A DNA stretch of 64,000 nucleotides from Terriglobales bacterium (GCA_035543055.1 DATKKJ010000054.1:1716-65715); one strand, 5' to 3'; numbered from the stretch's first letter, positions 12,221 to 34,864 are shown. Notes: generated by a model not told the origin, from the sequence alone. Translations and numbers: made by a program.

Positions 12221-12275
12221 TTCTCCCCCTGCGGGATGGCCTGAGCACAGTATTCCAGAACACCCGGACAGCCGA

Positions 12276-12291
12276 TGTGAGGAAAATCACA
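12276..12291. promoter_or_regulatory. perfect TGTGA-N6-TCACA inverted repeat (CRP/FNR-type operator candidate)
   Basis: Sequence tgtgaggaaaatcaca in a divergent promoter region, centred 63.5 bp from the minus-gene start (12220) and 76.5 bp from the plus-gene start (12360). Confidence 0.55.
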
Positions 12292-12301
12292 GGCGAGAAT
12301 C

Positions 12302-12339
12302 GGAAGTAGCCGGGAGTCAGGAGTCGGGAGTCAGCGGCG
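12302..12339. repeat. tandem heptamers (..GAAGTAGCC GGGAGTC AGGAGTC GGGAGTC AGCGGCG)
   Basis: Read directly. Same RGGAGTC family as 5434-5468. Confidence 0.7.
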
Positions 12340-12359
12340 GGACGGGTTAGAATCAGGAT

Positions 12360-12725
12360 ATGAGGAGATGGGCGGCGGTACTGGTCGTGGCGGTGCTGGC
12401 GGTGTGCGCCGGGGCGCAGCAGCAGAAGACTTCGGACCTGAAGTTCCAGGTGCTGAAGGAGCGGAACGGGAAGCCGATCCGCAATGCCAGCGTGATCCTG
12501 CATACGGTGGACAAGGAAGGCAAGCAGGGGAAGGGCGGGTTGCAGACCAAGACCGACGCCGAGGGGCGGGCGACGATCCCGGGGATCCCCTACGGGAAGA
12601 TGCGGGTGCAGGTGATCGCGCACGGGTTCCAGACCTTCGGCGCGGATTACGACATCGCCCAGCCGGAGCAGGAGTTCGTGATCAAGCTGAAGCTGCCGCA
12701 GGAACAGTACACAATCTACAAGTAA
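12360..12725 (+). CDS. secreted carboxypeptidase-regulatory-like (beta-sandwich) domain protein
   Basis: 121-aa ORF with a signal peptide (VLVVAVLAVCAGAQQ) and the pattern TDAEGRATIPGIPYGKMRVQV typical of CarboxypepD_reg-like folds. Confidence 0.55.
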   Translation: MRRWAAVLVVAVLAVCAGAQQQKTSDLKFQVLKERNGKPIRNASVILHTVDKEGKQGKGGLQTKTDAEGRATIPGIPYGKMRVQVIAHGFQTFGADYDIAQPEQEFVIKLKLPQEQYTIYK

Positions 12726-12780
12726 GCACTCAGTCCTTGGTCCTCACTGGGGAGCGAGCCTTGTTGAGCAAGCTGAGAAT

Positions 12781-14694
12781 CTAATCGGCGAGGTTCATGC
12801 GGCGAAGCGCGCTCTGGAAGCGGGGATCAGCGCGCAAGGGATCCCAGGCGGGATCAACCTTGAGGAAGATGAGGCGGGCCGCCCGCTCCTCCACCGCGAC
12901 ATCCAGCCACCGGAAGGCTTCGTCGAACTCGCCGAGCTGCCCATGGATGCGGGCAATGTAGGGACTTAGGATGGCCCGCGCCTGAGGGTGAGCCTTGAGG
13001 TCCTGCAGCAGGGCGCGGGCCTTATGGGTCTTGCCGATCCCGGCATAAGCCTGAATCTTGCCAGCCAAATCACCAAGACCGGGAAGTTCTCGCGGTGCGC
13101 GCTCGAATTCGTTCAAGGCCTGCGGGTACTCGCCCATCGAAAGCAGAAAGTGCCCCCACCAGATCGGGTTGGCGCCATCCAGTTCGCGGCGGCTTTGGGC
13201 CACCGCGCGAGCCTCCTGGAAACGACGCGCATTGACGTAAACCAGCCCACGGCCGCTGGCCACGGTTCGTGAGAGGGGGTCGAGGACAGCGGCGCGCTTG
13301 ATGGCCCCGATCGCTTCCTCGTGCCGACCCACAGTCGAGAGATACAGGCCGTAGACGTGATTCGACACCGGATTGTTAGGATTCGATAGAAGCGCCTTCT
13401 TCAATTCTCGTTCGGAACCGGCCCAGTCCCATTCGTAGTTCCGCAGAATGAAACCCAAGGCCGCATGGCCCTCCGGCAGGGAATCGTCAATCTCGATCGC
13501 CCGCAGGGCGGCCGCCTTGGCCAGGGGATAGCCTTCCTTGGGGGGAACAAACTCGCCGGAGGCCAGCCGGTTATAGGCGAAGGCCAGCCAGGCGTAGGCT
13601 TCGGCGTAATCCGGCTGCAGCGCGATCGCCCGTTTGAAATGGTCAACGCTGTCGGCTGCCCCTCGCTGCCGTCCGCTGTGCCAGAGAGACAACCCGCGCA
13701 GGAACGCCTCGTAGGCCTCCGGCTGGACGATACGGGTGCGCAGCGGGGCAGGCGCGCCGCGCGTCAACTGAAGGCCGATCTCCCGGGCGACGTTCACAGC
13801 GATGTCTTTCTGGACGGGGAAGATGCCGCTCAGTTCGCGTTCATAGCTTTCCGCCCAACGATGGCTCTGGTCTTGGACCTGGATCAGTTGCGCGGTGATG
13901 CGCACTCGATTCCCATCCCGGCGAACGCTCCCTTCGAGGATGTAGTCGACGTCAAGCTCGCGACCGATCTGGGCGACCGTCTTGCGTGATCCCTTGTAAG
14001 CCATGGCCGAGGTACGGGCGATTACGGCGAGCCGGGAGGAGTCGTAGCGACTCAGGTAGGCAATCATCTCCTCGGTCATGCCGTCACTGAAGTACTCCTG
14101 CGCCGAATCGCCGCTCAGGTTGGCGAACGGCAGCACCGCCAGCCGCTGCAACCCGGGCACGGTGGTGGGCCGCGGAGAGAACTTCGAGCTGGCTAGATTG
14201 ACCAGCAGCCCCAGGAGCAAAGCCATTGCCAGGGCAGCGATGGCATGCCGAGGCCTGGTCCTGATTGGCGGCGCCGTTACCGTGGGTCGCACCTCGGCCT
14301 GGGAGGCGGGGTCTGCCAGGGGGGCAACGAAGCGGTAGCCGCGACGGGGTACAGTCTCAATGAAGCGGGGGTTCTCGGGGCTATCACCCAAAGCGGTGCG
14401 CAGTTTCTGGACGGCCTTGTTCAGGCCGTGTTCGAAATCCACAAAGGTGTCGCCCGGCCAGAGCCGTTCGCGGAGCTGCTCCCGGCTCACCATCTCCCCC
14501 GGCGTGGCCAGCAGCATGCGCAGCACCTCTAACGGCTGCTGCTGGAGGTAAATCCTTTTTCCGTTGCAGGTTAGCTCGCCTGAACGAATGTCCAGGGCAT
14601 AGCCGGCAAAGTACGCCTTGGCGGTCTCAGGAGCGGACGGGTCCTGAACCGTGCCAGAGCTTGGAGCACTCCCCAAGAGATCCTCGACCTCCAC
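12781..14694 (-). CDS. CadC-like transcriptional regulator: OmpR/PhoB-type winged helix + TM + TPR repeats
   Basis: 637-aa ORF. The N-terminus has a wHTH (VSREQLRERLWPG..VDFEHGLNKAVQKLRTAL..IETVPRRGYRF), followed by one TM helix and C-terminal TPR-like repeats. Confidence 0.8.
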   Translation of the reverse strand: MEVEDLLGSAPSSGTVQDPSAPETAKAYFAGYALDIRSGELTCNGKRIYLQQQPLEVLRMLLATPGEMVSREQLRERLWPGDTFVDFEHGLNKAVQKLRTALGDSPENPRFIETVPRRGYRFVAPLADPASQAEVRPTVTAPPIRTRPRHAIAALAMALLLGLLVNLASSKFSPRPTTVPGLQRLAVLPFANLSGDSAQEYFSDGMTEEMIAYLSRYDSSRLAVIARTSAMAYKGSRKTVAQIGRELDVDYILEGSVRRDGNRVRITAQLIQVQDQSHRWAESYERELSGIFPVQKDIAVNVAREIGLQLTRGAPAPLRTRIVQPEAYEAFLRGLSLWHSGRQRGAADSVDHFKRAIALQPDYAEAYAWLAFAYNRLASGEFVPPKEGYPLAKAAALRAIEIDDSLPEGHAALGFILRNYEWDWAGSERELKKALLSNPNNPVSNHVYGLYLSTVGRHEEAIGAIKRAAVLDPLSRTVASGRGLVYVNARRFQEARAVAQSRRELDGANPIWWGHFLLSMGEYPQALNEFERAPRELPGLGDLAGKIQAYAGIGKTHKARALLQDLKAHPQARAILSPYIARIHGQLGEFDEAFRWLDVAVEERAARLIFLKVDPAWDPLRADPRFQSALRRMNLAD

Positions 14695-19974: not shown

Positions 19975-20226
19975 ATGGCCTACGTGATCACAGATGGTTG
20001 TATCAAGGACTCGCTGTGCGTGAATGCGTGTCCGGTCGATTGCATCCACCCCAAGGAAGACGAGGAGAAGTTCGCAGCCGCGACCCAGTTGTACGTGGAC
20101 CCGGTCACCTGCATCGATTGCGGCGCCTGCGTGGGCGTATGCACGTCCGACTCGATCTTCGCCCTGGACGACGTGCCGGAAGACAAAAAGCAGTTCATCG
20201 AGCTGAACGCAAAGTACTACAACTAA
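19975..20226 (+). CDS. ferredoxin (Fe-S cluster, 7Fe/8Fe type)
   Basis: 83-aa ORF with Cys motifs CxxxxxxCxxxCP and CIDCGACVGVC. Confidence 0.85.
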   Translation: MAYVITDGCIKDSLCVNACPVDCIHPKEDEEKFAAATQLYVDPVTCIDCGACVGVCTSDSIFALDDVPEDKKQFIELNAKYYN

Positions 20227-20440: not shown

Positions 20441-21151
20441 TTAGGCCAGGTCGAACAACAGGATCTCGGCGGGCGGGGAATCGGCGCCGGTGAGCTCGAC
20501 GGACTGTTCGTCGCTGATGGCGGCGCCGTCGCCCTGGCGGAGCGTCTTGCCGTTCACCGTGACCGTGCCGCGGGCCACCTGGACCCAGGCGTGGCGGCCG
20601 GGGGCGAGCTGGTGGCTGACGGTCTTGCCGCTGTCCAGCACGCTGCCGTAGATGCTGGCATCCTGGTGGATGGTGACGGAGCCGTCGCGGCCGTCGCGCG
20701 AAGCGACCAGGCGCAGGCGGTTGCGTTTGTCGTCGTCGGAAAAGGTCTTCTGCTCGTAGCCGGGCTCCAGGTTCTTCTTCTCCGGGAAGATCCAGATCTG
20801 CAGCAGGTGCACCCGTTCGTCCTTGGAGTGGTTGTACTCGCTGTGCAGGACGCCGGTGCCGGCGGTCATGCGCTGCACGTCGCCGGGGCGGATGGTGGAG
20901 CCGTTGCCCATGCTGTCCTTGTGGGCCAGCCCGCCCTCCAGCACGTAGGTGACGATCTCCATGTCGCGGTGGGGGTGGGTGCCGAAGCCGCCCCCGGGCT
21001 GCACGAAATCTTCGTTGATGACGCGCAGGGAACGGAACTGGTGATGTGCCGGGTCGAAATAATCGGCGAAGGAGAACGTATGCCAGGTATTGAGCCAGCC
21101 GTGGTCGAAGTGGCCGCGCTCGGCGGCGGGGCGGATGGTAAGCATGTTCAT
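20441..21151 (-). CDS. pirin family protein (bicupin)
   Basis: ORF 20441-21301 trimmed to [20 protein letters not shown]. Pirin metal motif [15 protein letters not shown]. Confidence 0.9.
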
Positions 21152-21681
21152 AACCTCGGCCGATATAGATGCCGGACGAAGCAAGAACGAAGCGAGCGGG
21201 CACAACCGGGGGTCCTTCAGGGACTTACCGACGATGCCGCGAGGACCTATCTGGCTGTCGAATCTGCCGCCGGTTTGACCGGCTCCGGGCGGGGCTCCCA
21301 ATCATGGTCATGCAGACCATCGAGAAGCTCGTCCGGAGAGATGCGCTTGCGGCAGCGGTAGCAGATGATCACCGCGACGGATTTGTCTCCCCACCATCCC
21401 ATGCGCGCATCATCGACCAGATCGGAGCACAGGACAAGATAACGGGCGTAATGCTCCCTAGTAACCATAAAGGGGACGGGGTGGAAAACCGAGCGGCGGG
21501 TCTGAGGATGGTCGCCTGAATCAACCAGCAAGCCAGAGGCGTTGCGTTGAACGTTTGCGTGGCTTTACGCTTGCGACCCTTGCAAATCCGCCGGGCGACT
21601 TTCCACCCCGAACTTACGACCGCAGCATAACGCGTTGGCGGGGGAGTACAAGATGACGCCGGTCACCTAGGCGGTTACCGA

Positions 21682-21864: not shown

Positions 21865-23136
21865 TCAATGGCGCGCGCGCAGGGCCGAGGCAATGCGGTC
21901 CACCGCGAGCAAGTGGGCGGCGGCGCGCAGGCCGATGTGTTCCCGGGCGCCGCAGTCGTGCACCGCCAGGTAAGCTCTCTGGATGCAGTCCTTCATATGC
22001 GCCTCGACATCACCGTTGGTGCGGCAGAGGCCACGCTGGTTGCGCGACCACTCCAGGACCGAGGCCAGCAGGCGCGTGGAGTTGGCGAGGATGTCGGGCA
22101 CGACCAGCACGCCGCGGTCGGCGAGGATGCGGTCGGCGGCGGGGGTGATGGTCTCCTGCACGGCCTCGACGACCACGCCGGCGTGGACCCTGGCGGCGTT
22201 CGCGGCCGTGATCTGGTGTTCGTCGGCGGCGGCCACCAGGAGGTCGCATGAGGTTTCGAGGACCTGCTCGTTGGTCGCGGCTTCGGCACGAGGGAATCCG
22301 AGCATGACGTGGTTGGTCTCGACGTAGGACTGGAGCTCGGCGATGTCGAGGCCATGCGGGTTGTGGAGGCCGCCGGAGAGATCGGCGATGGCGACGACAC
22401 GGGCGCCGGCGTCGTACAGCAGGCGGGCGGCGGCGCCGCCGAGCTTGCCGAATCCCTGGACGGCGACGGTGGCGCCGCGCACCAGGCCTCCGCGCTCCAG
22501 CAACACTTGCTCCAGCAGGAGAAAGAGATTGCGGGCGACCAGGGCGTCGAAGGCAGGCAGGCCCCAGAGTCCCTCGGGCTTGCCGGTGACGGCGGCGGCC
22601 TCCATGTGGCCCGCGGCGCGGATGAAGCCGTCGAACATCCAGGCGGCGGTCTGGGCGTTGCTGCCGATGCCGGGAGCGAGCACGTCGGTGGCTGGGCCGG
22701 CGATGCCGCGCAGGGCATAGACGTACTCCTTGGTGACGTCGCGGAGCTCGCGCTCGCTGAGTCTCTGGGGATCGCAGACGATGGCGCCGGCGCTGCCGCC
22801 GAAGGGCAGATCGAACAGGGCGCACTCCCAGGTCGTGGTCATGGCAGCGGCGCGGACGTGGCTAAGGCGCACGTCGGGGGAGTAGCGCACGCCTCCGAGT
22901 CCCGGTCCCTGCCAGGTGCAGTGCTGGACGCGGTAGGCGGTGACCATGAGCGGAAGTCCGTCGTTGGTGATGAGCGGCAGGTTGAGCGAGAGCTCGCGCT
23001 CGGGATGGCGGAGGCGCTGGACGATCCAGGCCTCCAGATCGAGGTGGCGGGCCGCAGTCTCGAAGTGCAGAGTGGCCTGCACGAGAGGGTCGAAGTCTTC
23101 GGTCTCGGCAGTGGGGAGCAGGGTGTCGGAGATCAT
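21865..23136 (-). CDS. Glu/Leu/Phe/Val dehydrogenase-fold protein, catalytic residues substituted
   Basis: ORF trimmed to MISDTL with a GGGGAGG RBS. Collinear with GDH. Rossmann motif VAVQGFGKLGG is retained. GPxKGG reads GPGLGG, TWKxA reads TWECA, GGxKGG reads GGSAGA, and APDV reads APGI. Confidence 0.85.
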   Translation of the reverse strand: MISDTLLPTAETEDFDPLVQATLHFETAARHLDLEAWIVQRLRHPERELSLNLPLITNDGLPLMVTAYRVQHCTWQGPGLGGVRYSPDVRLSHVRAAAMTTTWECALFDLPFGGSAGAIVCDPQRLSERELRDVTKEYVYALRGIAGPATDVLAPGIGSNAQTAAWMFDGFIRAAGHMEAAAVTGKPEGLWGLPAFDALVARNLFLLLEQVLLERGGLVRGATVAVQGFGKLGGAAARLLYDAGARVVAIADLSGGLHNPHGLDIAELQSYVETNHVMLGFPRAEAATNEQVLETSCDLLVAAADEHQITAANAARVHAGVVVEAVQETITPAADRILADRGVLVVPDILANSTRLLASVLEWSRNQRGLCRTNGDVEAHMKDCIQRAYLAVHDCGAREHIGLRAAAHLLAVDRIASALRARH

Positions 23137-23183
23137 GGGAACCTCCCCGGGGGTTCGCAGGGGCGGACCCCCGAATCCGTCGA

Positions 23184-24386
23184 TCAATCCGCACTGCCGG
23201 GCTGAGGCATGTAGCGCTCAACCACCGGCAGGCGGAAGTGAGGCAGCTCGCGCGGCGGCTCGCTGCGCGGGAAGATGCGCAGGTGGAGCACCGCCAGGCG
23301 GAAGGCCAGCACGGCGGCCGTCACCAGCATGATGGTGACCGCCATCTCCGGCCACTTGGGCACGTACCCGGCGTGCGTGGCCCGCTCCAGCGAGGTGATG
23401 GAGACGTTGATACGGTGCACAATGAAGCCGGCGACGGTAGCGGCGGCGGCCCAGTACAGCCCGATGGGCTGCTGGAAGACGGGCCGCAGGTTGAACATCA
23501 CCAGCGGCACCACCACGAACAGCGCCACCTCCAGCCAGAAGTAAGCGGTCTCCTCGACCGGCTTGAAGAGGTAGCCGAGGGCCTGCTGCCGGGCCAGGTC
23601 GCCGAAGCGGAAGAGCGCGAACAGCACCAGCAAAGGAATGATCATGCGGCGCAGGTCATCCAGCAGCTTCAGGTCGAGACGGACGTTCAGCGAGCGCACC
23701 GAGAGGTACAGGGCCATGATGATGAGGGCCATGCCGGCGGGAATGGCCGACAAGTAGAAGAGTGTCGTCTGGTAATTGCTGTACCAGAGCGGGTACATCT
23801 TGCCCTTGAAGATGATGAACAGCCCGCCCAGGAAGGACTGGTGCAGGGAGGAGAGCAGCACGCCGATCAGCACCAGGCCGATCAGGATGCGGTGCTGCCA
23901 GGCCAGGAAGAGCTCACGGGCGCGCTTCCAGGGGATCTTCTCGGCCAGCGCCGGGGAGAATTCCAGGGCCAGCACCGTGGTGTAAAGCATGATGCACCAG
24001 ACCACTTCAAAGAGGACGGAGGAGCGGTTCCACATGACGATGGGGTGCCAGAAGTTCCAGGGCAGCCCCAACTCCCAGGCGTAGCCGGCGCAGACCGAGA
24101 GATAGCCCAGGAAGGCGATCAAGACGGCGCAGCGGGCGAGTGGGCGGTAGCGCTCCATGCCCAGCAGGTAAACGCCGCCGGCGATGGCGAAGCCGCCGGC
24201 GGAGAGGCCGACGCCGCCCAGGGTGGCCAGCCCGACCCAGATGCCCCAGGGCTGAGCGTTCGACATGTTGGTGGCCACCGCGAATCCCTTCACGAAGCGG
24301 AGGTAGGTGGCCCAGAGGCCGGAGGCGAAGATCAGCGCCACCAGCACGCGCCACATCGTGATCTTGTTGGTGATGGTCTGCAACAT
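23184..24386 (-). CDS. NrfD/PsrC/HybB-type polytopic quinone-interacting membrane subunit
   Basis: 400-aa ORF with ~10 TM helices and an AAGGAG RBS. The sequence pattern resembles HybB/NrfD anchors. Confidence 0.8.
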   Translation of the reverse strand: MLQTITNKITMWRVLVALIFASGLWATYLRFVKGFAVATNMSNAQPWGIWVGLATLGGVGLSAGGFAIAGGVYLLGMERYRPLARCAVLIAFLGYLSVCAGYAWELGLPWNFWHPIVMWNRSSVLFEVVWCIMLYTTVLALEFSPALAEKIPWKRARELFLAWQHRILIGLVLIGVLLSSLHQSFLGGLFIIFKGKMYPLWYSNYQTTLFYLSAIPAGMALIIMALYLSVRSLNVRLDLKLLDDLRRMIIPLLVLFALFRFGDLARQQALGYLFKPVEETAYFWLEVALFVVVPLVMFNLRPVFQQPIGLYWAAAATVAGFIVHRINVSITSLERATHAGYVPKWPEMAVTIMLVTAAVLAFRLAVLHLRIFPRSEPPRELPHFRLPVVERYMPQPGSAD

Positions 24387-24389
24387 GGC

Positions 24390-25154
24390 TCAGCTCCTTT
24401 TCTGCGAGTCGTCGACGCGGCTTTCAGCCAGCGCGACCTCGCGCTTGCGCTGCGTGAACCAATAGAGGCCGGAGAGCAGGGAACCGCCGACCAGGACGAC
24501 GGTCGGCACTTCGCCCAGCGCGGCGGCGCTCAGCGTGGGCAGGGGCTGGTTCATGGGCGCGGTCACGAAGCCCAGGTCCTCGAAGGGGACGTCGGAGAGA
24601 TAGAAGACGGAAGTGCCGCCCACCTCGATCTCGCCGTAGATCTTGCGGACGTAGGCCGGGTTCTCCGCGATGCGCTTGTGGGCCTCGGCCAGCAGGGCCT
24701 CGCGGTCGCCGAACATGGTGGCGCCGGTGGGGCAGACCTCGGCGCAGGCCGTGGGCTTGCCGGCAAGGGTGCGCTCGGCGCACAGGTCGCACTTGGTGAC
24801 GTAGGGCGCCAGCTTGCTCCATTCGTACTTGGGGACGTCGAAGGGGCAGGCGATCATGCAGTAGCGGCAGCCGATGCACTTGCTGCCGTCGTAGCGCACG
24901 GCGCCTTCGCTGGTCTTGATGAGAGCGCCGACCGGGCAGGCCGAGGCGCAGGCCGGGCTCTGGCAGTGCATGCACTGGCGGCGGACGAACTTGCCGCCGC
25001 GCTCGCTCACCACGGTCAGCGCGGTCTCGGAGAGCGCGGTCTCGTGTTCCTTGGGAAATCCGTGGAGCTCCTTGCAGGCTTGCTCGCAGGCCTGGCAGCC
25101 GACGCACTTGGTGATGTCGATCAGTAACGCGTTCGATCTGGTTTCCATGGTCAT
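24390..25154 (-). CDS. 4x[4Fe-4S] ferredoxin-type subunit (HybA/NrfC/DmsB-like) with C-terminal TM helix, no Tat signal
   Basis: Four Cys clusters: CVGCQACEQAC, CMHCQSPACASACP, CIGCRYCMIACP, CDLC..CAEVCP. No twin-arginine in the N-terminus. The start may be the second ATG at 25148. Confidence 0.9.
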   Translation of the reverse strand: MTMETRSNALLIDITKCVGCQACEQACKELHGFPKEHETALSETALTVVSERGGKFVRRQCMHCQSPACASACPVGALIKTSEGAVRYDGSKCIGCRYCMIACPFDVPKYEWSKLAPYVTKCDLCAERTLAGKPTACAEVCPTGATMFGDREALLAEAHKRIAENPAYVRKIYGEIEVGGTSVFYLSDVPFEDLGFVTAPMNQPLPTLSAAALGEVPTVVLVGGSLLSGLYWFTQRKREVALAESRVDDSQKRS

Positions 25155-25181
25155 AACCTCCTCATGCGTTCACTGCCACAG

Positions 25182-25841
25182 CTAGGTCAAAAGGAATTCA
25201 CGGACGACGCGGCGCTGGAGGACCGGCTCCAGGCGCTTGAGCAGACCGGCGACCGGCTGCCCGCCATCCTGCATGACCGCAGCCGACTGAGCAGTCATAG
25301 CAGCCAGGCGGCTGAGCGTGCCCTGCATCCAGGGCGCGACCATCGGCCCCTGCACCAGGTTCTTGAGATTGGTGTTGATCTCGGGCGACTTGATGACGCA
25401 GATCCAGCCTTCCTTGTAGGGATCGGCGACCGCCAGTTCGGGATTGGCGAGCACACCCTGGTTGACCGAGACCAGCACGCCTTCGATGGGAGAGAGCATG
25501 TCCACGGTCTGGCCGTCGAAGCAGACGCTCCACAGCCTCTGCCCTTGACGCACCCAGCGGTTCAGGGCGGCGACTTCAATGCGCTCCGGCTTGCCGATCA
25601 GGGTGGCGGCGAAGGAGTCCAGCCCGATGCGAGCGTTCTGATTGCCTTCGTCGAGCGCCCAGGTATGTCCGGGATGGAAGAAGTAGCCGCGGGGAAGATC
25701 GAAACCCATCTCGCGGGTCATCACCGGTTGCAGAGGCGGGGCCAGGGTCCGGGCGACCGCCGTGCCGACATCCCTGCCCTTGACGAAATAGGTGATCACC
25801 ATGATGAGCAGGAAGGTGAGCAGTACAAAGAGGATCGACAT
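25182..25841 (-). CDS. membrane-anchored GcvH-like (glycine cleavage H fold) protein lacking lipoyl-lysine
   Basis: 219 aa with an AGGAGG RBS and an N-terminal TM helix. Shows a GcvH-like pattern (YFFHPGHTWA, ARIGLDSFAA, SPIEGVLVSVN, DPYKEGWICVIK). The position aligned to the lipoyl-Lys is Gly110. Confidence 0.7.
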   Translation of the reverse strand: MSILFVLLTFLLIMVITYFVKGRDVGTAVARTLAPPLQPVMTREMGFDLPRGYFFHPGHTWALDEGNQNARIGLDSFAATLIGKPERIEVAALNRWVRQGQRLWSVCFDGQTVDMLSPIEGVLVSVNQGVLANPELAVADPYKEGWICVIKSPEINTNLKNLVQGPMVAPWMQGTLSRLAAMTAQSAAVMQDGGQPVAGLLKRLEPVLQRRVVREFLLT

Positions 25842-26035
25842 ACGCGCCTCCTGACTTCCACTGTGGACAGAGCACGTTGGGGCGCAGTCGGAATGTGGTG
25901 AAGGGAAAGGGGTTGGGGGAGGTCAGGAGAGTGGGCGCTGGATTTCGCCTAGCGAAATGCGTGGAAGCGATGCGTTTTGCAGGGGCGTAGAAGCAGCCCG
26001 CCACGAATTCTCGTCGGATTGGTTATTGTGCTCCT

Positions 26036-26854
26036 CTAACGACAGAATTTTTGCAGCTCTGGAGGCGGTGGCAGTGGAATTGCGTCGAATTCGCCGGGCC
26101 ACCCTGTGCAGCCATGAGCGACCACGGCGCGGGCGAAGTCCTTCTCGAGTTTGCGGGCCTTCGTCTTGCCTTCTTCTGTGCGGACGCTGCCAAGATCCGC
26201 TTCAAGTGATTGGAGATCATCCGATCTAACGTCTGGATATCCTGCGTCAGAACTGACGAGGAACCACACATAGCCGTTGAACTTGTCGCGATCTACCCCC
26301 CGCCCCTCTTTCAACAGCGTGCCGAGCCGGTACTGAGCCTGCGGAAGGCCCTGCTCGGCGGCCTTTTGAAACGACTCCGCAGCCAGAGTGTATTCCTGCC
26401 TTTCCAGCCGGATCATACCCAGCAAATATTCGCCGAAGGGATCGCCCTGCGTGGCGGACTTCTGTAGCCATGCGGCGGCCTCAGTCACGTCGCGCGGCGG
26501 AATCAGGCCGGCGAGAATCAGTCGGCCGACGAGCCATTGCGCGAGGGGATCGTTCTGTTGTGCCGCCTTCTTATACCAAGTCAGTGCGTGCGACGCGTCC
26601 TTGGTGACGAGTAGGCCCGTCTCGTAGAGATAGCCGAGCACCACTTGTGCTGGCACGTATCCCATCTCTGCAGATCTGCGGAACAAGCTGACGGAGTTGA
26701 GGTCACTGCGGCTTTGGCTGCTTCCGATAAGGCCGTTCATCGCGCGCTCATATAATTGCGACGCACTATCAGCCTGGGAAGCCGTTTGCGCAAGAACCTG
26801 GCTGAACCCGACAGCCGATAGCGAGAGAATCAGCACAACCAAACACCACCGCAC
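26036..26854 (-). CDS. Sel1-repeat (TPR-like) secreted protein
   Basis: ORF 26036-26971. GTG start at 26854 preceded by an AAGGAG RBS gives a signal peptide. Repeated Sel1 motifs (AEMGYVPAQVVLGYLYETG, AAQQNDPLAQWLVG, ATQGDPFGEYLLG, AEQGLPQAQYRLG). Confidence 0.8.
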   Translation of the reverse strand: MRWCLVVLILSLSAVGFSQVLAQTASQADSASQLYERAMNGLIGSSQSRSDLNSVSLFRRSAEMGYVPAQVVLGYLYETGLLVTKDASHALTWYKKAAQQNDPLAQWLVGRLILAGLIPPRDVTEAAAWLQKSATQGDPFGEYLLGMIRLERQEYTLAAESFQKAAEQGLPQAQYRLGTLLKEGRGVDRDKFNGYVWFLVSSDAGYPDVRSDDLQSLEADLGSVRTEEGKTKARKLEKDFARAVVAHGCTGWPGEFDAIPLPPPPELQKFCR

Positions 26855-27054
26855 GGTCCGCTCCTTCGAAACAAGCTTATCAGGAGAGGAACAACGAAAC
26901 GGCAAGCAATCGCCCGCCGGCGCGGGTTTTTCTCTTGTGCGGTGCTCCCACTGCTTTGCAGTGGCCTTCAAATCCTCCCAGGCGGCTCGACCTTTCCTTG
27001 ACCATCCGGGAGCGGCAGAGCATAATTTCGCCGCTTTCCACAGGAGTCCTGGCC

Positions 27055-28770
27055 ATGAGTGAGTCCCCGATCAAGCGCATAGGCGATTACGAGATCCTTG
27101 GCGAGTTGGGCGCGGGCGGCATGGGCCGCGTGTACCGGGTGCGCAACGTCCTGACCGACCGGGTCGAAGCCATGAAGGTGCTGCTGCCCAACCTGCAGGG
27201 CCATGAAGAGGTGGCGGCGCGTTTCCTGCGCGAGATCAAGGTGCTGGCGGCGCTCAACCACCCCAACATCGCCGCCCTGCGCACGGCCCTGACCATCGAG
27301 AACCAGTTGGTCATGGTGATGGAATACGTGGAGGGCGAATCGCTGTCGTCGCGGCTCAATGCCGGGGCCATCCCGATCGCGGATGCGCTGAATTATCTCG
27401 ACCAGGTGCTGGACGCGCTCAGCTACGCGCACAAGAACCACGTCATCCACCGCGACATCAAGCCGGCGAACATGATGCTGACCCGCCAGGGAGTCGTGAA
27501 GTTGATGGACTTCGGCATCGCCCACACCGAGGCGGCCGAGGACGCCAAGAAGCTCACCGCAACCGGCTCGACCCTAGGATCCATCAGTTACATGTCGCCG
27601 GAGCAGGTGAAGGGCGAAAAGACCGACGAGCGTTCCGACCTCTACTCGCTGGGGATCTCGCTCTACGAGATGGTGACGGGGAAGAAGCCGTTCGATGAGG
27701 GCAGCAGCTTCTCTATCATGGCGGCGCACATCAACCAGGCGCCGACGCCGCCCATCGAGTTGCATCCCGACATCCCGCCGCTGGTCAACCAGCTGATCCT
27801 GAAGTCGATCGCCAAGCCGCCAGGCGAGCGCTACCAGACGGCGGACGCGTTCCGCGCGGCCGTGCGCCAGGCGCGCGCTCTGGTGCCGGCGGACGACCGG
27901 ACGATCGTGCGGGGCTCCAGCGACTACACCTTCGCCAATGCGCCCACGGTCGGCACCGTAGCGGCCAACGACCGGACGGTCGTGCAGGGCTCGACCGACA
28001 ACACCATCGCGGCGTCGATGGCGCCAACGGCGCCGAACCCGGCGATCCCCAGCGTGCCGGCGCCGGCTGCAAGCGCAGCTCCAACTGCTCCGGCGGCGCC
28101 CACCTACCGTCAGGCCTTCGCGACAGTCCCGGCACCTCCTCCGCGGCAGGCAGCCGCGCCGCAGTATGCAGCAGCGCCCGCTTCCCATCCGCCCGTCGCA
28201 GCCTCCGGCAGCCACCGTGGGCTTTACATCGCGCTCGGGGGGTTGCTGGTGGTCGTGGCCCTGGTCGCCGCCGGACTCTATATGCCGGGGCACAAGAAGG
28301 CTTCCGCATCCGACGCCGTGCAGCCGACCAAGGCGATCCAGGAAGCGCCGGCACCGACCCCGCCGCCAGCCGCGGCTCCAGCAGCCGCGCCCACACCAGC
28401 GGGTTCGACTGCGGACGCTGACGCTCTCGCCCGCGCCAAGGCGCAACGGCTGGCGCAAGAGAAGGCGGCCGCGGAAGCTGCTCGCGCTGCCGCCGAGCGG
28501 AAGGCGCAACTCGACGTGGTGGAGCACCAGATCGACCAACTGACCGGGCGCGCAGGTGCGGTGAACGCCAGCCTCAACACCCTGCAGCGCCAGCAGAACG
28601 CGTCCGGATATGGGCTGCGCGGCGACATGGCCTCGGCACAGAGCCGGCTGAACGTCAATCTGGCCAAAGCCCAGAACGCCATCCAACACGAGGACCTGGA
28701 GCGCGCCAAGCGCTATGCGGCGGAAGCCGAATCCGACCTCGAGACGCTGGAGAAGTTCCTGGGCAGATAA
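27055..28770 (+). CDS. Ser/Thr protein kinase with TM helix and extracytoplasmic coiled-coil region
   Basis: ORF trimmed to MSESPIKRIGDYEI. Hanks motifs GELGAGGMGRVY, HRDIKPANM, DFG, SPEQ. A/P-rich linker, one TM helix, coiled-coil tail. Confidence 0.9.
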   Translation: MSESPIKRIGDYEILGELGAGGMGRVYRVRNVLTDRVEAMKVLLPNLQGHEEVAARFLREIKVLAALNHPNIAALRTALTIENQLVMVMEYVEGESLSSRLNAGAIPIADALNYLDQVLDALSYAHKNHVIHRDIKPANMMLTRQGVVKLMDFGIAHTEAAEDAKKLTATGSTLGSISYMSPEQVKGEKTDERSDLYSLGISLYEMVTGKKPFDEGSSFSIMAAHINQAPTPPIELHPDIPPLVNQLILKSIAKPPGERYQTADAFRAAVRQARALVPADDRTIVRGSSDYTFANAPTVGTVAANDRTVVQGSTDNTIAASMAPTAPNPAIPSVPAPAASAAPTAPAAPTYRQAFATVPAPPPRQAAAPQYAAAPASHPPVAASGSHRGLYIALGGLLVVVALVAAGLYMPGHKKASASDAVQPTKAIQEAPAPTPPPAAAPAAAPTPAGSTADADALARAKAQRLAQEKAAAEAARAAAERKAQLDVVEHQIDQLTGRAGAVNASLNTLQRQQNASGYGLRGDMASAQSRLNVNLAKAQNAIQHEDLERAKRYAAEAESDLETLEKFLGR

Positions 28771-28778
28771 GCAGCGGG

Positions 28779-30227
28779 CTAGTGAAACTCGGTGCGATGG
28801 GGCAGGTACGGAACGTATCCGTACCGCTTCTTCGGCTGGGTCAGGGCTTCCACCTTGCGGAGCAGGAAGTTGAGCGGCTTCAAGGCGAGTCCGCGCCCGA
28901 TCAGCGCGATCACTGCCACCACCAGGAACATGAGATTCCAGCCGCGGACCACGGCGCGGAATGAGAAGAAGTCCTCGGCAAACTGCATCCCCGGCTCGAC
29001 CACCTGGGTGATGTACTCGAACAAGCGCGATCCGTGCACGGCGCCGGGCCGGATGACCGGGCCAACCAGGAAGTAAACGAAATAGCAGAGCGGCACGGCG
29101 AGCGTCGCCAGCGACAGGATCTTGCGCAACCCCAAGGCCGACCAGTACACCACCCGCTTCCACTCGCGGTAATGCGGGTCCCTGATCTGGCCGAGGACCA
29201 TGGTCGGCCAGACCAGCGACTTGGGCGGCACGATCTCTGCGCGGGACTCCTCGGCGATGAGCGTGCTGTGCGGAGCGGCCACGGCGCTGTCCGCGGTCTC
29301 GGCAGGGACGGGCTCTGGGGGCGGCTCGGGCGCCCGACTGGGGAGCGGTTCCCCCGGCGGCAGGAATTCGACGACCGCCTGGGAGAGGCGCTGCAGGGCC
29401 GCAATGTCGCCGAGGTCGAAGACATTCGGCTTGCTGGAAAAGACCTCGAACACGCCCTCGACCCGCCCGCCGTGCTTGACTGGCACCAGCAGCGCCGCCC
29501 GCAGACGCAGGGCCCGACAGACTTCGGCGTTCACGGTGGGATCGGATTCGGTATCGGGACAGAGCACCGGTTCGCCCGACCCCACACACCTTCCTGAAAG
29601 TCCGGCCTGGGGATCGAGCCGGGCGCCAAGCGCCGGCGCATTGCCGGCCCGGGCGCGGCAGAGGATGGCGTCATCCTTACGAAGGACGATGGCGGCGCCG
29701 TCGGCCGCAGTCATCACCATCATCTTGCGGATGAGCGCCTCCAGGCCGGGATGGTCCGCCTCCGCTTCCCATTCGGTGATGGGGCGGGGTCCCGGAGACC
29801 GAGGCAAGGCGGCGACGGCGATGGCCGGCTCGCTCCCCACAGGCGCAGGGTCATCATTTCCCGGGTGGGCTGCGGCTTGCTCGCCGCAGAGCCACTGCGC
29901 GAGTCTCGCCTGGCTGTTGTGCGAGAAGGCAAGGAAGCGCAGACCGGCGACACCGGAGGTGTGTGTCCACACCATCTCGCAGTTGACGCTGATGTCGGAG
30001 CCGTCGGGAAGAGAGAAGGAAATGGCCGAGCCGGCGGGGAGGTCCGGGGCCCTGGGAGCTGCTACCCGCATGCCGCCCTCGCTCAAGTCGAGAACGCGGG
30101 CACGGGAGGCGGCGTCGATTTCTGCGCAGATCCCCTTGCCTTCGACCGTGCGACGCGCAAAGCGGCGCCGCGCCGACCTTGGAGGGTACGCGTACGAGCC
30201 GGGAACCGGGATTCCCGCGATCGCCAT
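28779..30227 (-). CDS. PilZ - GAF - 2-TM membrane module protein
   Basis: 482 aa. PilZ motifs RRFAR (RxxxR) and DLSEGG (DxSxxG). Central GAF-like region. C-terminal pair of TM helices. Confidence 0.8.
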   Translation of the reverse strand: MAIAGIPVPGSYAYPPRSARRRFARRTVEGKGICAEIDAASRARVLDLSEGGMRVAAPRAPDLPAGSAISFSLPDGSDISVNCEMVWTHTSGVAGLRFLAFSHNSQARLAQWLCGEQAAAHPGNDDPAPVGSEPAIAVAALPRSPGPRPITEWEAEADHPGLEALIRKMMVMTAADGAAIVLRKDDAILCRARAGNAPALGARLDPQAGLSGRCVGSGEPVLCPDTESDPTVNAEVCRALRLRAALLVPVKHGGRVEGVFEVFSSKPNVFDLGDIAALQRLSQAVVEFLPPGEPLPSRAPEPPPEPVPAETADSAVAAPHSTLIAEESRAEIVPPKSLVWPTMVLGQIRDPHYREWKRVVYWSALGLRKILSLATLAVPLCYFVYFLVGPVIRPGAVHGSRLFEYITQVVEPGMQFAEDFFSFRAVVRGWNLMFLVVAVIALIGRGLALKPLNFLLRKVEALTQPKKRYGYVPYLPHRTEFH

Positions 30228-32459: not shown

Positions 32460-33848
32460 TCAGTTATCCGAGTGCGAACGCTTGAGGCGGCGGAGCAGGG
32501 AAGTGGGGTGGATGCCCAGGATGCGGGCGGCCTGGGTCTTGTTATTGCCGCTGGCGGTCAGCACTTCCTGGATGTAGCGGTCTTCCAGTTCGTCGAGGCT
32601 CAGGAACTGGTGGCCGGTGGGAGAAACGTCGAAGCCGGACGACATCGGGGGCTCCGCGGCCTTAGGCCGCACGTAGTCGCGGATCTCCTCGGGCAGGGAG
32701 GCGGCGTCGATGTCGCCTTCCGGGGCCAGGATCATGGTGCGCTCGATGACGTTGCGCAATTCACGGACGTTTCCCGGCCAGGGATAGGAAGTCAGGAGCT
32801 CGGCGGCGGCGGGCGTCAGGCCGGTAAAGTTCTTCTTTAAGTCCCGGTTGTAACGCTGCATCAGGTCTAAGGCTAACGGCACGATGTCTTCCTTGCGCTC
32901 GCGCAGAGCGTGAATTCGCAGGGGGACGACCGCCAGGCGGTAATACAGGTCCTCGCGGAACTTGCCGGCGGCGATCAGCTCCTTCAGGTCCTTGTTGGTG
33001 GCGGCGATGATGCGCACGTCCACGCTGATCACCCGGGTGCCACCGAGACGCATGAAGGTGCCTTCCTCGAGGACGCGCAGCAACTTGGCCTGGACGTTGA
33101 GCGACATGTCGCCGATCTCATCAAGGAAGAGGGTGCCGTGGTTGGCGCGCTCGATGAGGCCTTCCTTGCGGCGGCGGGCGTCGGTGAAGGCGCCCTGCTC
33201 GTAGCCGAAAAGCTCGCTCTCCAGGAGGGTCTCGGGCAGGGCGGCGCAATTCAGCTCGATGAGGGGCATGTGGGCACGGGGGCTGTGGTAGTGGATGGCC
33301 TTGGCCAGCACTTCCTTGCCGGTGCCGCTTTCGCCGGTGACGAGGATGGTGGTGCGGTCGCTCTCGGCGGCTTTGCGGCAGACCTCGAGCATCTCGCGCA
33401 CGTCGGGATTGAGGGTGACGACGCGGCCGAAATCGTAGCGTCCCTTGGCGTTCTGCACCGACTCGCTGACCCGGACGCGCAGGGCGAGCATCTCGGTGGC
33501 GCGGCGGACGGTGTTCACCATGTCGGCGAGGTGGAAGGGTTTGACCAGGAAGTCGTAAGCGCCGAGCTTCATGGCTTCGACCGCGCGGTCCACCTGGTGG
33601 TAGGCGCTCATCATGATGGCGATGGTCTGCGGAGACTGCTGCTTGATCTCGCGCAGGACCTCGACGCCATCCATGCCGGGCAGCACCACGTCGAGCAGCA
33701 CCAGGCTGGGATGGTCCTGGGCGAACCTCTCCAGGGCCTGTTCGCCACTAGTGGCGACCTCCACCTCGAAACCTTCCTCGCGGAGGGCGCGGCTGATGGT
33801 GCGCAGGGTGAGCGCCTCGTCGTCCACGACCAGGATGGAGTAGGCCAT
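32460..33848 (-). CDS. sigma54-dependent response regulator (NtrC family)
   Basis: 462 aa. REC domain, AAA+ domain (GESGTGKE, GAFTDA) and C-terminal HTH. Confidence 0.93.
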   Translation of the reverse strand: MAYSILVVDDEALTLRTISRALREEGFEVEVATSGEQALERFAQDHPSLVLLDVVLPGMDGVEVLREIKQQSPQTIAIMMSAYHQVDRAVEAMKLGAYDFLVKPFHLADMVNTVRRATEMLALRVRVSESVQNAKGRYDFGRVVTLNPDVREMLEVCRKAAESDRTTILVTGESGTGKEVLAKAIHYHSPRAHMPLIELNCAALPETLLESELFGYEQGAFTDARRRKEGLIERANHGTLFLDEIGDMSLNVQAKLLRVLEEGTFMRLGGTRVISVDVRIIAATNKDLKELIAAGKFREDLYYRLAVVPLRIHALRERKEDIVPLALDLMQRYNRDLKKNFTGLTPAAAELLTSYPWPGNVRELRNVIERTMILAPEGDIDAASLPEEIRDYVRPKAAEPPMSSGFDVSPTGHQFLSLDELEDRYIQEVLTASGNNKTQAARILGIHPTSLLRRLKRSHSDN

Positions 33849-34864
33849 CAGGTCACCACCTCTTCAAATTCCGGGGCCGGGCGGCCGACCTGGCGGATGG
33901 GCAGAGTGATGCGCACGGTCGTGCCCTGGCCGGGGTTGCTCTCGATGCGCAGATCGCCCTTGTGACTGCGCATATAGGACTGGCTGATACTCAGGCCGAG
34001 CCCCGTGCCCTTGCCGCGCTTGGTGGTGAAAAAGGGCTCGGTGACGCGGGGCAGGATGTCCGCGGGGATGCCGCAGCCGGTGTCGGAGACGGCGATCTCG
34101 ATCTGTTCCTCGAACTTCACCTTGCGGGCGGTGACCGCGATGCGCCCGCCCTCGTCGGTGGCCTGGCCGGCGTTGAGCAGCAGGTTCATCAGCACCTGGG
34201 AGAGCTGGTTGGCGTCGGCCGAGATCTGGGGCAGGTCGGGGGGGACATCTTTCACCAGCTCGATACCGTGGAACAGCGGCTGGTGGCGGAGGAAATCCAA
34301 GGTGTCTGTGACCAGGCGATCGAGATGGATCTTGCTGATCAGCAGGGGCCCGGGGCGGGCATAGTTCAGTAGGCCATGGATGGTGGCCGAGATGCGTTTT
34401 GCGCCCTCGATGCACTGCTCGAGCTCGGCGCGCTGCTCCGCGTCGCGGGCGGCGCGCAGCTCCAGCTCCAGGTGGGAGAAGATGCCGAGCAGGGGATTAT
34501 TGATCTCGTGGGCGGCGCCCATGGCGAGCTGGGCCAGGGCGGCATACTTCTCGTATTCAGCCAGCTGGGCCTGGAACTGGTGTTTTTCGCGGGCCAGTTC
34601 TCGTTGCTGGCTGAGGCGGTTGGCCAGCTCCTCCTGGGCCAGGTCGCGTTCCTGCTCGCGCTGCCGGGCCGTCTCCAGGGCACGGGCCAGGTCGGCGCAG
34701 GTTCGCTGGTAGCGCCGGCGAGTGGTCCACCACACGACCACCGCGAGAACGAGGGCGCCACCGGTGACGGCGATGATGAATTCGTGGGTCAGAAAAAACG
34801 ACGGGAGGTCAAGGACGGCGCAGCCGACCGGAATCGACGCACATCCGGGCGCGCACGGGGACAC
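33848..34864 (-). CDS. sensor histidine kinase
   Basis: 338 aa. TM helix, H-box AHEINNPL, HATPase motifs (DTGCGI, GTGLGLSIS). One-nt overlap with the regulator gene. Confidence 0.88.
   Translation of the reverse strand: MSPCAPGCASIPVGCAVLDLPSFFLTHEFIIAVTGGALVLAVVVWWTTRRRYQRTCADLARALETARQREQERDLAQEELANRLSQQRELAREKHQFQAQLAEYEKYAALAQLAMGAAHEINNPLLGIFSHLELELRAARDAEQRAELEQCIEGAKRISATIHGLLNYARPGPLLISKIHLDRLVTDTLDFLRHQPLFHGIELVKDVPPDLPQISADANQLSQVLMNLLLNAGQATDEGGRIAVTARKVKFEEQIEIAVSDTGCGIPADILPRVTEPFFTTKRGKGTGLGLSISQSYMRSHKGDLRIESNPGQGTTVRITLPIRQVGRPAPEFEEVVT

Follow-up and report, generated by a model that had tools for sequence, protein, structure and literature searches.

The stretch of DNA analysed here (64,000 nucleotides from Terriglobales bacterium, GCA_035543055.1 DATKKJ010000054.1:1716-65715, hereafter the window) carries, at positions 21,865 to 25,841, four genes designated G1 to G4, which belong to a widely conserved membrane redox module that is undescribed in the searchable literature. 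The four genes and the probable end of their transcript are located as follows.

25841..25182, minus strand: G1, 219 amino acids (aa), a GcvH-fold protein with a single membrane pass
25154..24390, minus strand: G2, 254 aa, a protein with four [4Fe-4S] clusters, of the HybA/HmcB/FdnH type
24386..23184, minus strand: G3, 400 aa, an NrfD-family protein of the HybB/HmcC type
23136..21865, minus strand: G4, 423 aa counted from the ATG that follows GGGAGG, a protein with the glutamate-dehydrogenase fold
21850-21811, minus strand: probable intrinsic terminator, a GC-rich hairpin followed by GUUUUGU, as read from the sequence

The initial annotation had described four co-oriented genes with gaps of 27, 3 and 47 bp (G1-G2, G2-G3 and G3-G4, respectively) and a strong Shine-Dalgarno sequence before each, and all of this is found on the sequence, the motifs being AGGAGG, GAGGAGG, AAGGAG and GGGAGG for G1 to G4 in that order. 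The longest open reading frame (ORF) of G4 opens at a TTG at 23187. The hairpin at the end of the cluster, also pointed out in that annotation, folds with -31.7 kcal/mol within a stretch of 67 nt (z = -1.7) and has its GUUUUGU tail, and no terminator lies between G3 and G4. A scan with the terminator consensus did not list this hairpin and returned only two weak intragenic matches; its total of 6 is not above chance (3.4 ± 1.8 in shuffles).

Profile hidden Markov models, which had been recommended as a check, matched the four proteins with GCV_H, Fer4_11, NrfD, ELFV_dehydrog_N and ELFV_dehydrog. G2 matches Pfam Fer4_11 with an E-value of 2.6e-22, and its 16 Cys can be read from the sequence in four cluster motifs; the 16 Cys are all kept in 65 of 74 orthologues and the four motifs in 73 of the 74. 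The closest match in the PDB is FdnH (8e-32), and the scores lie below the NCBIfam equivalog cut-offs for both HmcB (245.9 bits vs 420) and HybA (210.4 bits vs 263). The N-terminus of G2 is too short for a signal peptide, the maximal ORF starting 16 residues ahead of the first Cys. With 16 Cys, four motifs and so short an N-terminus, G2 is indeed the HybA/NrfC-like protein without a twin-arginine translocation (Tat) signal that had been described. As for the C-terminal transmembrane helix also assigned to it, a hydrophobic segment does exist there, but it is only marginally hydrophobic, with a best 19-residue Kyte-Doolittle mean of 1.30 ± 0.18 vs 2.09 ± 0.13 in Tat-bearing relatives. G3 matches Pfam NrfD (PF03916; E 2.2e-14, 54.2 bits against a cut-off of 25.8) and contains ten hydrophobic segments, in agreement with its assignment as an NrfD/HybB-type membrane subunit. 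It too falls below the NCBIfam equivalog cut-offs, for HmcC (250.9 bits vs 550) as well as for HybB (217.5 bits vs 450), and a PDB sequence search with it gave no match.

G1, which the source annotation names merely 'glycine cleavage system H protein', matches Pfam GCV_H (E 4.6e-14, 52.8 bits against a cut-off of 22.2) and stays below the GcvH equivalog TIGR00527 (48.7 bits vs 115.85). Its N-terminal helix (MSILFVLLTFLL...) is directly followed by two or three positive residues (K/R); an N-terminal extension of the protein was rejected on the limits of the ORF. In the alignment to Thermus GcvH, the position of the lipoyl-lysine is occupied by Gly110, a near-invariant Gly across 29 relatives, and the distant members of the family have no conserved lysine. 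The HxW, SP.xG and PY..GW motifs of GcvH are retained, and a helical C-terminal extension of ~55 aa bears a QDGGxPV...EF(F/L)LT motif. The AlphaFold2 model consists of a helix at residues 2-24, a linker, the GcvH fold and the C-terminal extension; it was built on an alignment of 103 sequences and has a predicted local distance difference test score (pLDDT) of 93, this alignment being used instead of a shallow one with which the run was uninformative (pLDDT 50). Compared by Foldseek with T. thermophilus GcvH (1onl), the model gives a template modelling score (TM-score) of 0.92 and a root-mean-square deviation (rmsd) of 1.5 Å. No cofactor-binding features are found in the cytoplasmic domain. The Pfam match, Gly110 and the model together agree with the earlier description of a membrane-anchored GcvH fold without the lipoyl-lysine. 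The role of a carrier protein, which had also been suggested, falls away: since the lysine is absent family-wide, G1 cannot work as a swinging-arm carrier.

Soluble, Cys-rich relatives of G1 (P0359, P0378 and P0384; L169 and L170) carry, where G1 has its membrane helix, an N-terminal domain made of two C-x12-13-C-x5-C-x2-C repeats, and adjoin a second GCV_H gene or radical-SAM/B12 genes. These contexts are unrelated to the module and give no clue to function.

G4 matches both domains of its fold in Pfam, ELFV_dehydrog_N (E 2.3e-36, 124.8 bits) and ELFV_dehydrog (E 2.5e-44, 152.2 bits), and lies below the NCBIfam cut-offs for glutamate dehydrogenase (GDH; 303 bits vs 620 and 297 bits vs 750). 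In the alignment to T. maritima GDH 1b3b (E = 3e-84), L, E, A and G occupy the positions equivalent to K89, K113, K125 and D165; the three lysines are absent in all 34 of 34 orthologues, and no new conserved constellation of Cys, His or Lys appears among the G4 orthologues. The Rossmann glycine motif of G4 (GFGKLG) is intact and the acidic residue at the end of beta-2 is retained, and GxGxxG is degraded in about one quarter of the orthologues. G4 is therefore just as it had been annotated, a GDH fold with an intact Rossmann motif and replaced catalytic residues, and the residues reported as missing from G1 and G4 stay missing when whole families are aligned. Judged by these residues, G4 is catalytically dead, with dinucleotide binding probably retained. 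The window copy is 100% identical to a protein of a Terriglobales metagenome-assembled genome (MAG).

In a scan of 185,579 species genomes, at least 263 were found to contain a relative of G1, and the best 80 were inspected; they are labelled Terriglobia or Acidobacteriota MAGs, save one labelled Verrucomicrobiia. G1, G2 and G3 stand in this order in all 83 Terriglobia loci, as far as the contigs reach, and the flanks differ. The G1 family comprises ~2,500 protein clusters at 90% identity, and its profile recovers 148 clusters at 50% identity with E <1e-30, many of like architecture. A metagenome scan run with the distant G1 subgroup A3 returned 80 loci, whose proteins are 33-40% (G1-like), 40-52% (G2-like) and 28-35% (G3-like) identical. 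The typical order in these distant loci is G1A-G2-G3-G1B, that is to say, two GcvH-fold paralogues and never a GDH. The association of the trio is also seen in loci L165, L166 and L168. In all, more than 150 independent loci show the arrangement, which goes beyond chance. One member of the distant subgroup comes from a Melioribacteraceae MAG; a final protein search for a cultured carrier gave MAG and metagenome proteins only. In some MAG or long-read contigs (L002/L003 10700-11467; L165 5850-6683) G2 is split or lacks the first cluster motif, which is probably due to assembly frameshifts and not to biology.

Judged by gene order, the conserved unit is the trio G1-G2-G3 and not a quartet. A GDH-like gene follows G3 in only ~37 of 63 assessable Terriglobia loci, its overall presence there being put at ~55-60%, and is never found outside Terriglobia, and for this reason G4 is an accessory member of the operon and not part of the conserved unit. 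Of the four-gene neighbourhood to which the initial annotation pointed, the first three genes stood in every locus that could be assessed; the fourth did not, being missing from ~40% of the Terriglobia loci and from all distant ones. All four genes are under purifying selection, with dN/dS of 0.15-0.28 for G2 and G3, 0.33-0.44 for G1 and 0.32-0.47 for G4, and on this ground, together with the retention of the 16 Cys of G2, a non-functional relic was rejected. The absence of a catalytic subunit at the locus was likewise confirmed and found to extend further, no catalytic subunit turning up in ~165 related loci, no family of such subunits recurring in either the Terriglobia or the distant loci, and no catalytic partner lying within ±8-10 kb in ~85 loci of three lineages whose G2 lacks a Tat signal. 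The quinone-linked NrfCD-type module with non-canonical subunits is conserved and real.

The membrane topology can be read from G3. Its ten hydrophobic segments have an N-in charge bias, the K+R counts of the 'in' regions and 'out' loops being 14.5 vs 6.3 in the window clade and 24.3 vs 4.8 in the Tat-bearing group, and the loops on the periplasmic side are the best conserved part of the protein across the Tat-less and Tat-bearing groups. In L168 (10206-11837), an 11th helix and then a trihaem cytochrome c7 domain with three CxxCH are appended to helix 10 of G3, which puts the end of the 10-helix core on the cytoplasmic side; the N- and C-termini of G3 are both cytoplasmic, and G3 presumably holds the quinone site. 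An inverted G3 was rejected on account of the charge bias and of this fusion. For G1, the topology follows from a similar fusion: P0399 (L165:8001-9242, in the order Fer4_11, NrfD, P0399) has a signal peptide, four CxxCH, a G1B-type helix and a GcvH-like domain, and since the tetrahaem domain is N-terminal to the helix, the GcvH-like domain must be cytoplasmic. The topology of G3 and the cytoplasmic site of the G1-type domains are accordingly counted as shown, as are the make-up and conservation of the module, its residue states and a periplasmic, Tat-exported G2 in the distant relatives.

The location of G2 in the window clade is less straightforward. Among the distant orthologues of G2, 36 of 37 bear a textbook Tat signal, for example MTISRRNFLKAAGAAGG, which points to an iron-sulfur (Fe-S) subunit that was ancestrally periplasmic. 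In 64 of the 77 Terriglobia orthologues the first Cys comes after only 12-14 residues, the other 13 have no hydrophobic h-region, and a Tat signal is present in none of the 77. The lineages L166 and L168 likewise have a Tat-less G2. An N-terminal extension of G2 was rejected, the maximal ORF and the N-termini of the orthologues leaving none. No Tat-bearing partner was found near the Tat-less modules or in the window operon, and the whole 64-kb window contains one weak RR-type Tat candidate only. The weakly hydrophobic C-terminal segment of G2 is followed by the tail TQRKRE...KRS, the C-terminal tail being conserved, so that the positive charge comes after the segment and not before it. Directly after this segment, the Tat-less forms have an RR(R) motif (TQRRRE, TNRRAE, INRRIK) that is not there in the Tat-bearing ones, and they carry the G1A paralogue only. 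In summary, the Terriglobia clade has lost the Tat signal, weakened the anchor of G2 and gained an RR(R) motif after it.

There are three options for the Tat-less G2: hitchhiking on an unlinked partner, an unknown route, or a move to the cytoplasmic face. That it is still periplasmic in the Tat-less clade seems to us the somewhat better bet, favoured by the c7 fusion to G3 in the Tat-less L168 and by the conservation of G3 on its periplasmic side. The Tat-less module of L168 adjoins a gene for an FdhE-like protein (12021-12923, minus strand), which may bear on the export of G2; the FdhE family is an assembly factor of formate dehydrogenase.

The following genes surround the module in the window.

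33848..34864, minus strand: histidine kinase, 338 aa, no Pfam domains being recognised beyond HisKA and HATPase
32460..33848, minus strand: sigma-54-dependent response regulator, by its Pfam domains
28779-30227, minus strand: PilZ+GAF protein
26935-28770, plus strand: Ser/Thr protein kinase
26036-26971, minus strand: Sel1-repeat protein
25870..25878, minus strand: remnant of an upstream element, AACGTGCTC
20441-21301, minus strand: pirin
19975-20226, plus strand: small ferredoxin with two [4Fe-4S] clusters

The histidine kinase and the sigma-54 regulator lie 6.6 kb upstream of the module, and the PilZ+GAF, Ser/Thr kinase and Sel1-repeat genes between them are unrelated to it and not conserved with it. 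In 50-54 of 81 Terriglobia loci, genes of the same two families are directly upstream of G1, and a histidine kinase, a sigma-54 response regulator and an M54 peptidase are the recurring neighbours in the distant loci, where the kinases own HAMP or Cache sensor domains. The pair in the window is, by synteny in the relatives, a candidate regulator of the module. The small M54 (archaemetzincin-like) peptidase gene stands directly after the kinase/regulator pair in ~25 distant loci (for example L088:9827-10351 and L166:13046-13582).

In front of G1, a GG-N10-GC promoter of the sigma-54 type followed by CTCCACGTGCAC is found in 42 of 78 Terriglobia loci, compared with 0.15 expected in shuffles. Promoter and element lie ~45-170 nt upstream of G1 (L004-L083), and overlapping CACGTG and GTGCAC palindromes are contained within CTCCACGTGCAC. 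A strict search with the sigma-54 consensus missed this promoter, which was revealed by a k-mer analysis. Of CTCCACGTGCAC, only the ACGTGC part is kept in the window remnant. The ferredoxin and pirin genes, just downstream of the operon terminator, have no conserved linkage.

The explanation that we favour, and to which an about even chance may be given, is a self-contained, inducible module of the NrfCD/HybAB/HmcBC type that links the quinone pool to periplasmic carriers. G3 would bind quinone or quinol, and the four [4Fe-4S] clusters of G2 would connect it with the periplasmic face, where the redox partners would most likely be c-type cytochromes, soluble or fused, and not a fixed catalytic subunit. 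G1 would be a dedicated and obligatory single-pass subunit of a new sort, whose invariant transmembrane helix packs in the membrane and whose cytoplasmic, lipoate-less and non-catalytic GcvH-fold domain serves as a structural or regulatory adaptor. The module would be inducible, in most relatives from a sigma-54 promoter driven by the adjacent two-component system. G4, co-transcribed in a subset of Terriglobia, would most likely be a cytoplasmic regulatory or scaffolding partner and not an enzyme for electron input. The direction of electron flow and its partners are inferred, as are the roles of G1 and G4.

Several points weigh against this explanation. The first is G2 itself, which is without a Tat signal in the clade, in L166 and in L168 and has no Tat-bearing partner nearby; no route is known by which a folded Fe-S protein is exported when neither it nor a partner bears a Tat signal. 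In addition, the C-terminal segment of G2 is of marginal hydrophobicity (1.30 vs 2.09), the window is without the sigma-54 promoter motif, no cytochrome c gene is present in the window operon, and the roles assigned to G1 and G4 within the module are putative.

The alternative that survives best concerns G4 only and says that it is unrelated to the module, for example that it serves the genuine GDH of the cell as a regulatory subunit and happens to share the transcript; we regard this as doubtful, though still to be reckoned with. G4 is patchy in its presence and the fastest-evolving member of the operon, its identity to the window copy being 23-61% vs 53-85% for G2 and G3. Moreover, Thermus GdhA, a non-catalytic, regulatory GDH paralogue, would offer a parallel, and its chain 3aoe_E is among the PDB matches of G4. 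On the other hand, G4 always has the same position and strand after G3 when it is present, no terminator separates the two genes in the window, and its orthologues occur almost only in the context of the module, as judged from contig sizes that the G4 and G1 matches have in common.

It is unlikely, in our estimation, that the Tat-less G2 is instead the beta subunit of a Tat-bearing catalytic subunit encoded elsewhere (a molybdopterin enzyme or [NiFe] hydrogenase), to which the trio would serve as membrane anchor. FdnH, PsrB and DmsB are co-exported hitchhikers without a signal peptide of their own; as in PsrB and DmsB, the first cluster motif of G2 comes right at the start of the protein, and FdnH is its best solved relative. 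The topology of G3 with its conserved periplasmic-side loops argues that G2 must reach the periplasm, and the FdhE-like gene adjoining the Tat-less module of L168 is also in keeping with such a partner. However, the ~85 Tat-less loci of three lineages contain no partner of this kind within the ±8-10 kb mentioned above, the Tat-bearing ancestral form is equally without a catalytic partner, and an obligate alpha subunit encoded apart from its module in at least 263 species would be unusual.

A comparably low probability is given to the idea that the Tat-less form is a new placement of an NrfC-type subunit, either exported and anchored by means of the C-terminal segment and the RR(R) motif, with no N-terminal Tat signal and no alpha subunit, or relocated to the cytoplasmic face to work with the G1 domain and, in loci that have it, the dead GDH. 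If this is true, either placement would be without precedent among NrfD complexes, and quinone-interacting complexes would gain, in the lipoate-less membrane GcvH-fold protein, an obligatory subunit of a new class.

Still less probable is the reading of the initial annotation, in which a cytoplasm-facing G2 is fed by NAD(P)H via G4 or by a G1 carrier and passes electrons on to quinone at G3. For it speak the lack of a Tat signal in all 77 orthologues of G2, the cytoplasmic site of the G1 domain and of G4, a C-terminal segment of G2 too weakly hydrophobic for a confident transmembrane helix, and the GxGxxG and acidic beta-2 residue which G4 retains. The input of NAD(P)H is, however, weak as a mechanism: a flavin-binding protein, which would have to split a hydride into single electrons, is absent, G4 has no catalytic residues and its GxGxxG is degraded in ~1/4 of orthologues, and G1 has no lipoyl lysine. 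G4 is also missing from ~40% of the loci and from all other lineages. As to the orientation, NrfD proteins dock the Fe-S partner on the periplasmic side, where their quinone site also lies, and an inverted G3 was rejected; the cytoplasm-facing placement is thus in conflict with the canonical N-in G3, with the periplasmic cytochrome c7 fused to G3 in the Tat-less L168, with the positive charges after and not before the hydrophobic segment of G2, and with the Tat signal of 36/37 distant orthologues. The Thermus Nrc complex was not used as a cytoplasm-facing precedent, because the paper does not call NrcE NrfD-like.

The least probable alternative is a sensor without bulk respiratory flux, in which the G1 domain would signal the redox state of the periplasm or the quinone pool to the kinase/sigma-54 regulator or to G4: the two-component system lies beside the module even in very distant lineages, the kinase of Terriglobia is short (338 aa, HisKA and HATPase only) and the cytoplasmic domain of G1 is free of cofactor-binding features, but the kinases of distant relatives have their own HAMP or Cache sensor domains, a four-cluster wire with an NrfD protein would be a costly sensor, and the contact between G1 and the kinase remains putative.

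Many anaerobic respiratory chains meet the quinone pool through an NrfD-type module, and the version described here is widespread, has no catalytic subunit and has a dedicated GcvH-fold partner. It is common in Terriglobia of peat and soil, which are dominant there in carbon turnover, and it may form a so far overlooked connection of the quinone pool with acceptors in the periplasm or outside the cell. A whole clade that has lost the Tat signal and kept all clusters is a concrete test case for the ways in which folded Fe-S proteins get to the periplasmic face or leave it. In addition, G1 and G4 clearly exemplify a carrier fold and an enzyme fold recruited as non-catalytic parts.

In the searchable literature, no link of NrfD with GcvH or the glycine-cleavage H protein, or of HybA/HybB with glycine cleavage, was found. 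Among the known systems, GDH of the ELFV family, to which the non-catalytic GdhA of Thermus is to be added, has both domains and the Rossmann motif in common with G4, whereas in the whole G4 orthologue group the equivalents of K89, K113, K125 and D165 are replaced. GcvH and LbpA, the lipoate-binding protein of sHdr systems, have the fold in common with G1 (TM-score 0.92, rmsd 1.5 Å). Unlike them, G1 has Gly for the lipoyl lysine family-wide, as well as an N-terminal transmembrane helix and the ~55-aa C-terminal extension, and its genomic partner is the NrfCD pair and not gcvPT or hdr genes.

The architecture of an Fe-S wire with a quinone site is common to the module and to NrfCD, PsrBC and DsrOP-type modules and FdnH, and G2 is without its own signal peptide like FdnH and PsrB; these systems encode a Tat-bearing alpha subunit or cytochrome partners in the operon, and none was found here. 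A multihaem cytochrome c subunit of the Hmc/Nhc/Qrc type is absent from the window operon as well, and in the relatives it occurs only as the fusions P0399 and G3-c7 of L168. The nearest systems are HybA/HybB of E. coli hydrogenase-2 and HmcB/HmcC of Desulfovibrio (also NhcB/NhcC), which, as here, combine a four-cluster Fe-S protein with a 10-helix NrfD protein; the C-terminal anchor of the Fe-S protein would have its counterpart in the weakly hydrophobic segment of G2. HybA/HybB and HmcB/HmcC are the best NCBIfam matches of G2 and G3, yet the scores are under every equivalog cut-off. Unlike them, the module has no gene for a hydrogenase or a large multihaem cytochrome, has an extra GcvH-fold subunit and, in this clade, is Tat-less; like HybAB and HmcBC, its relatives have a G2 with a Tat signal of its own and a c-type cytochrome as partner.

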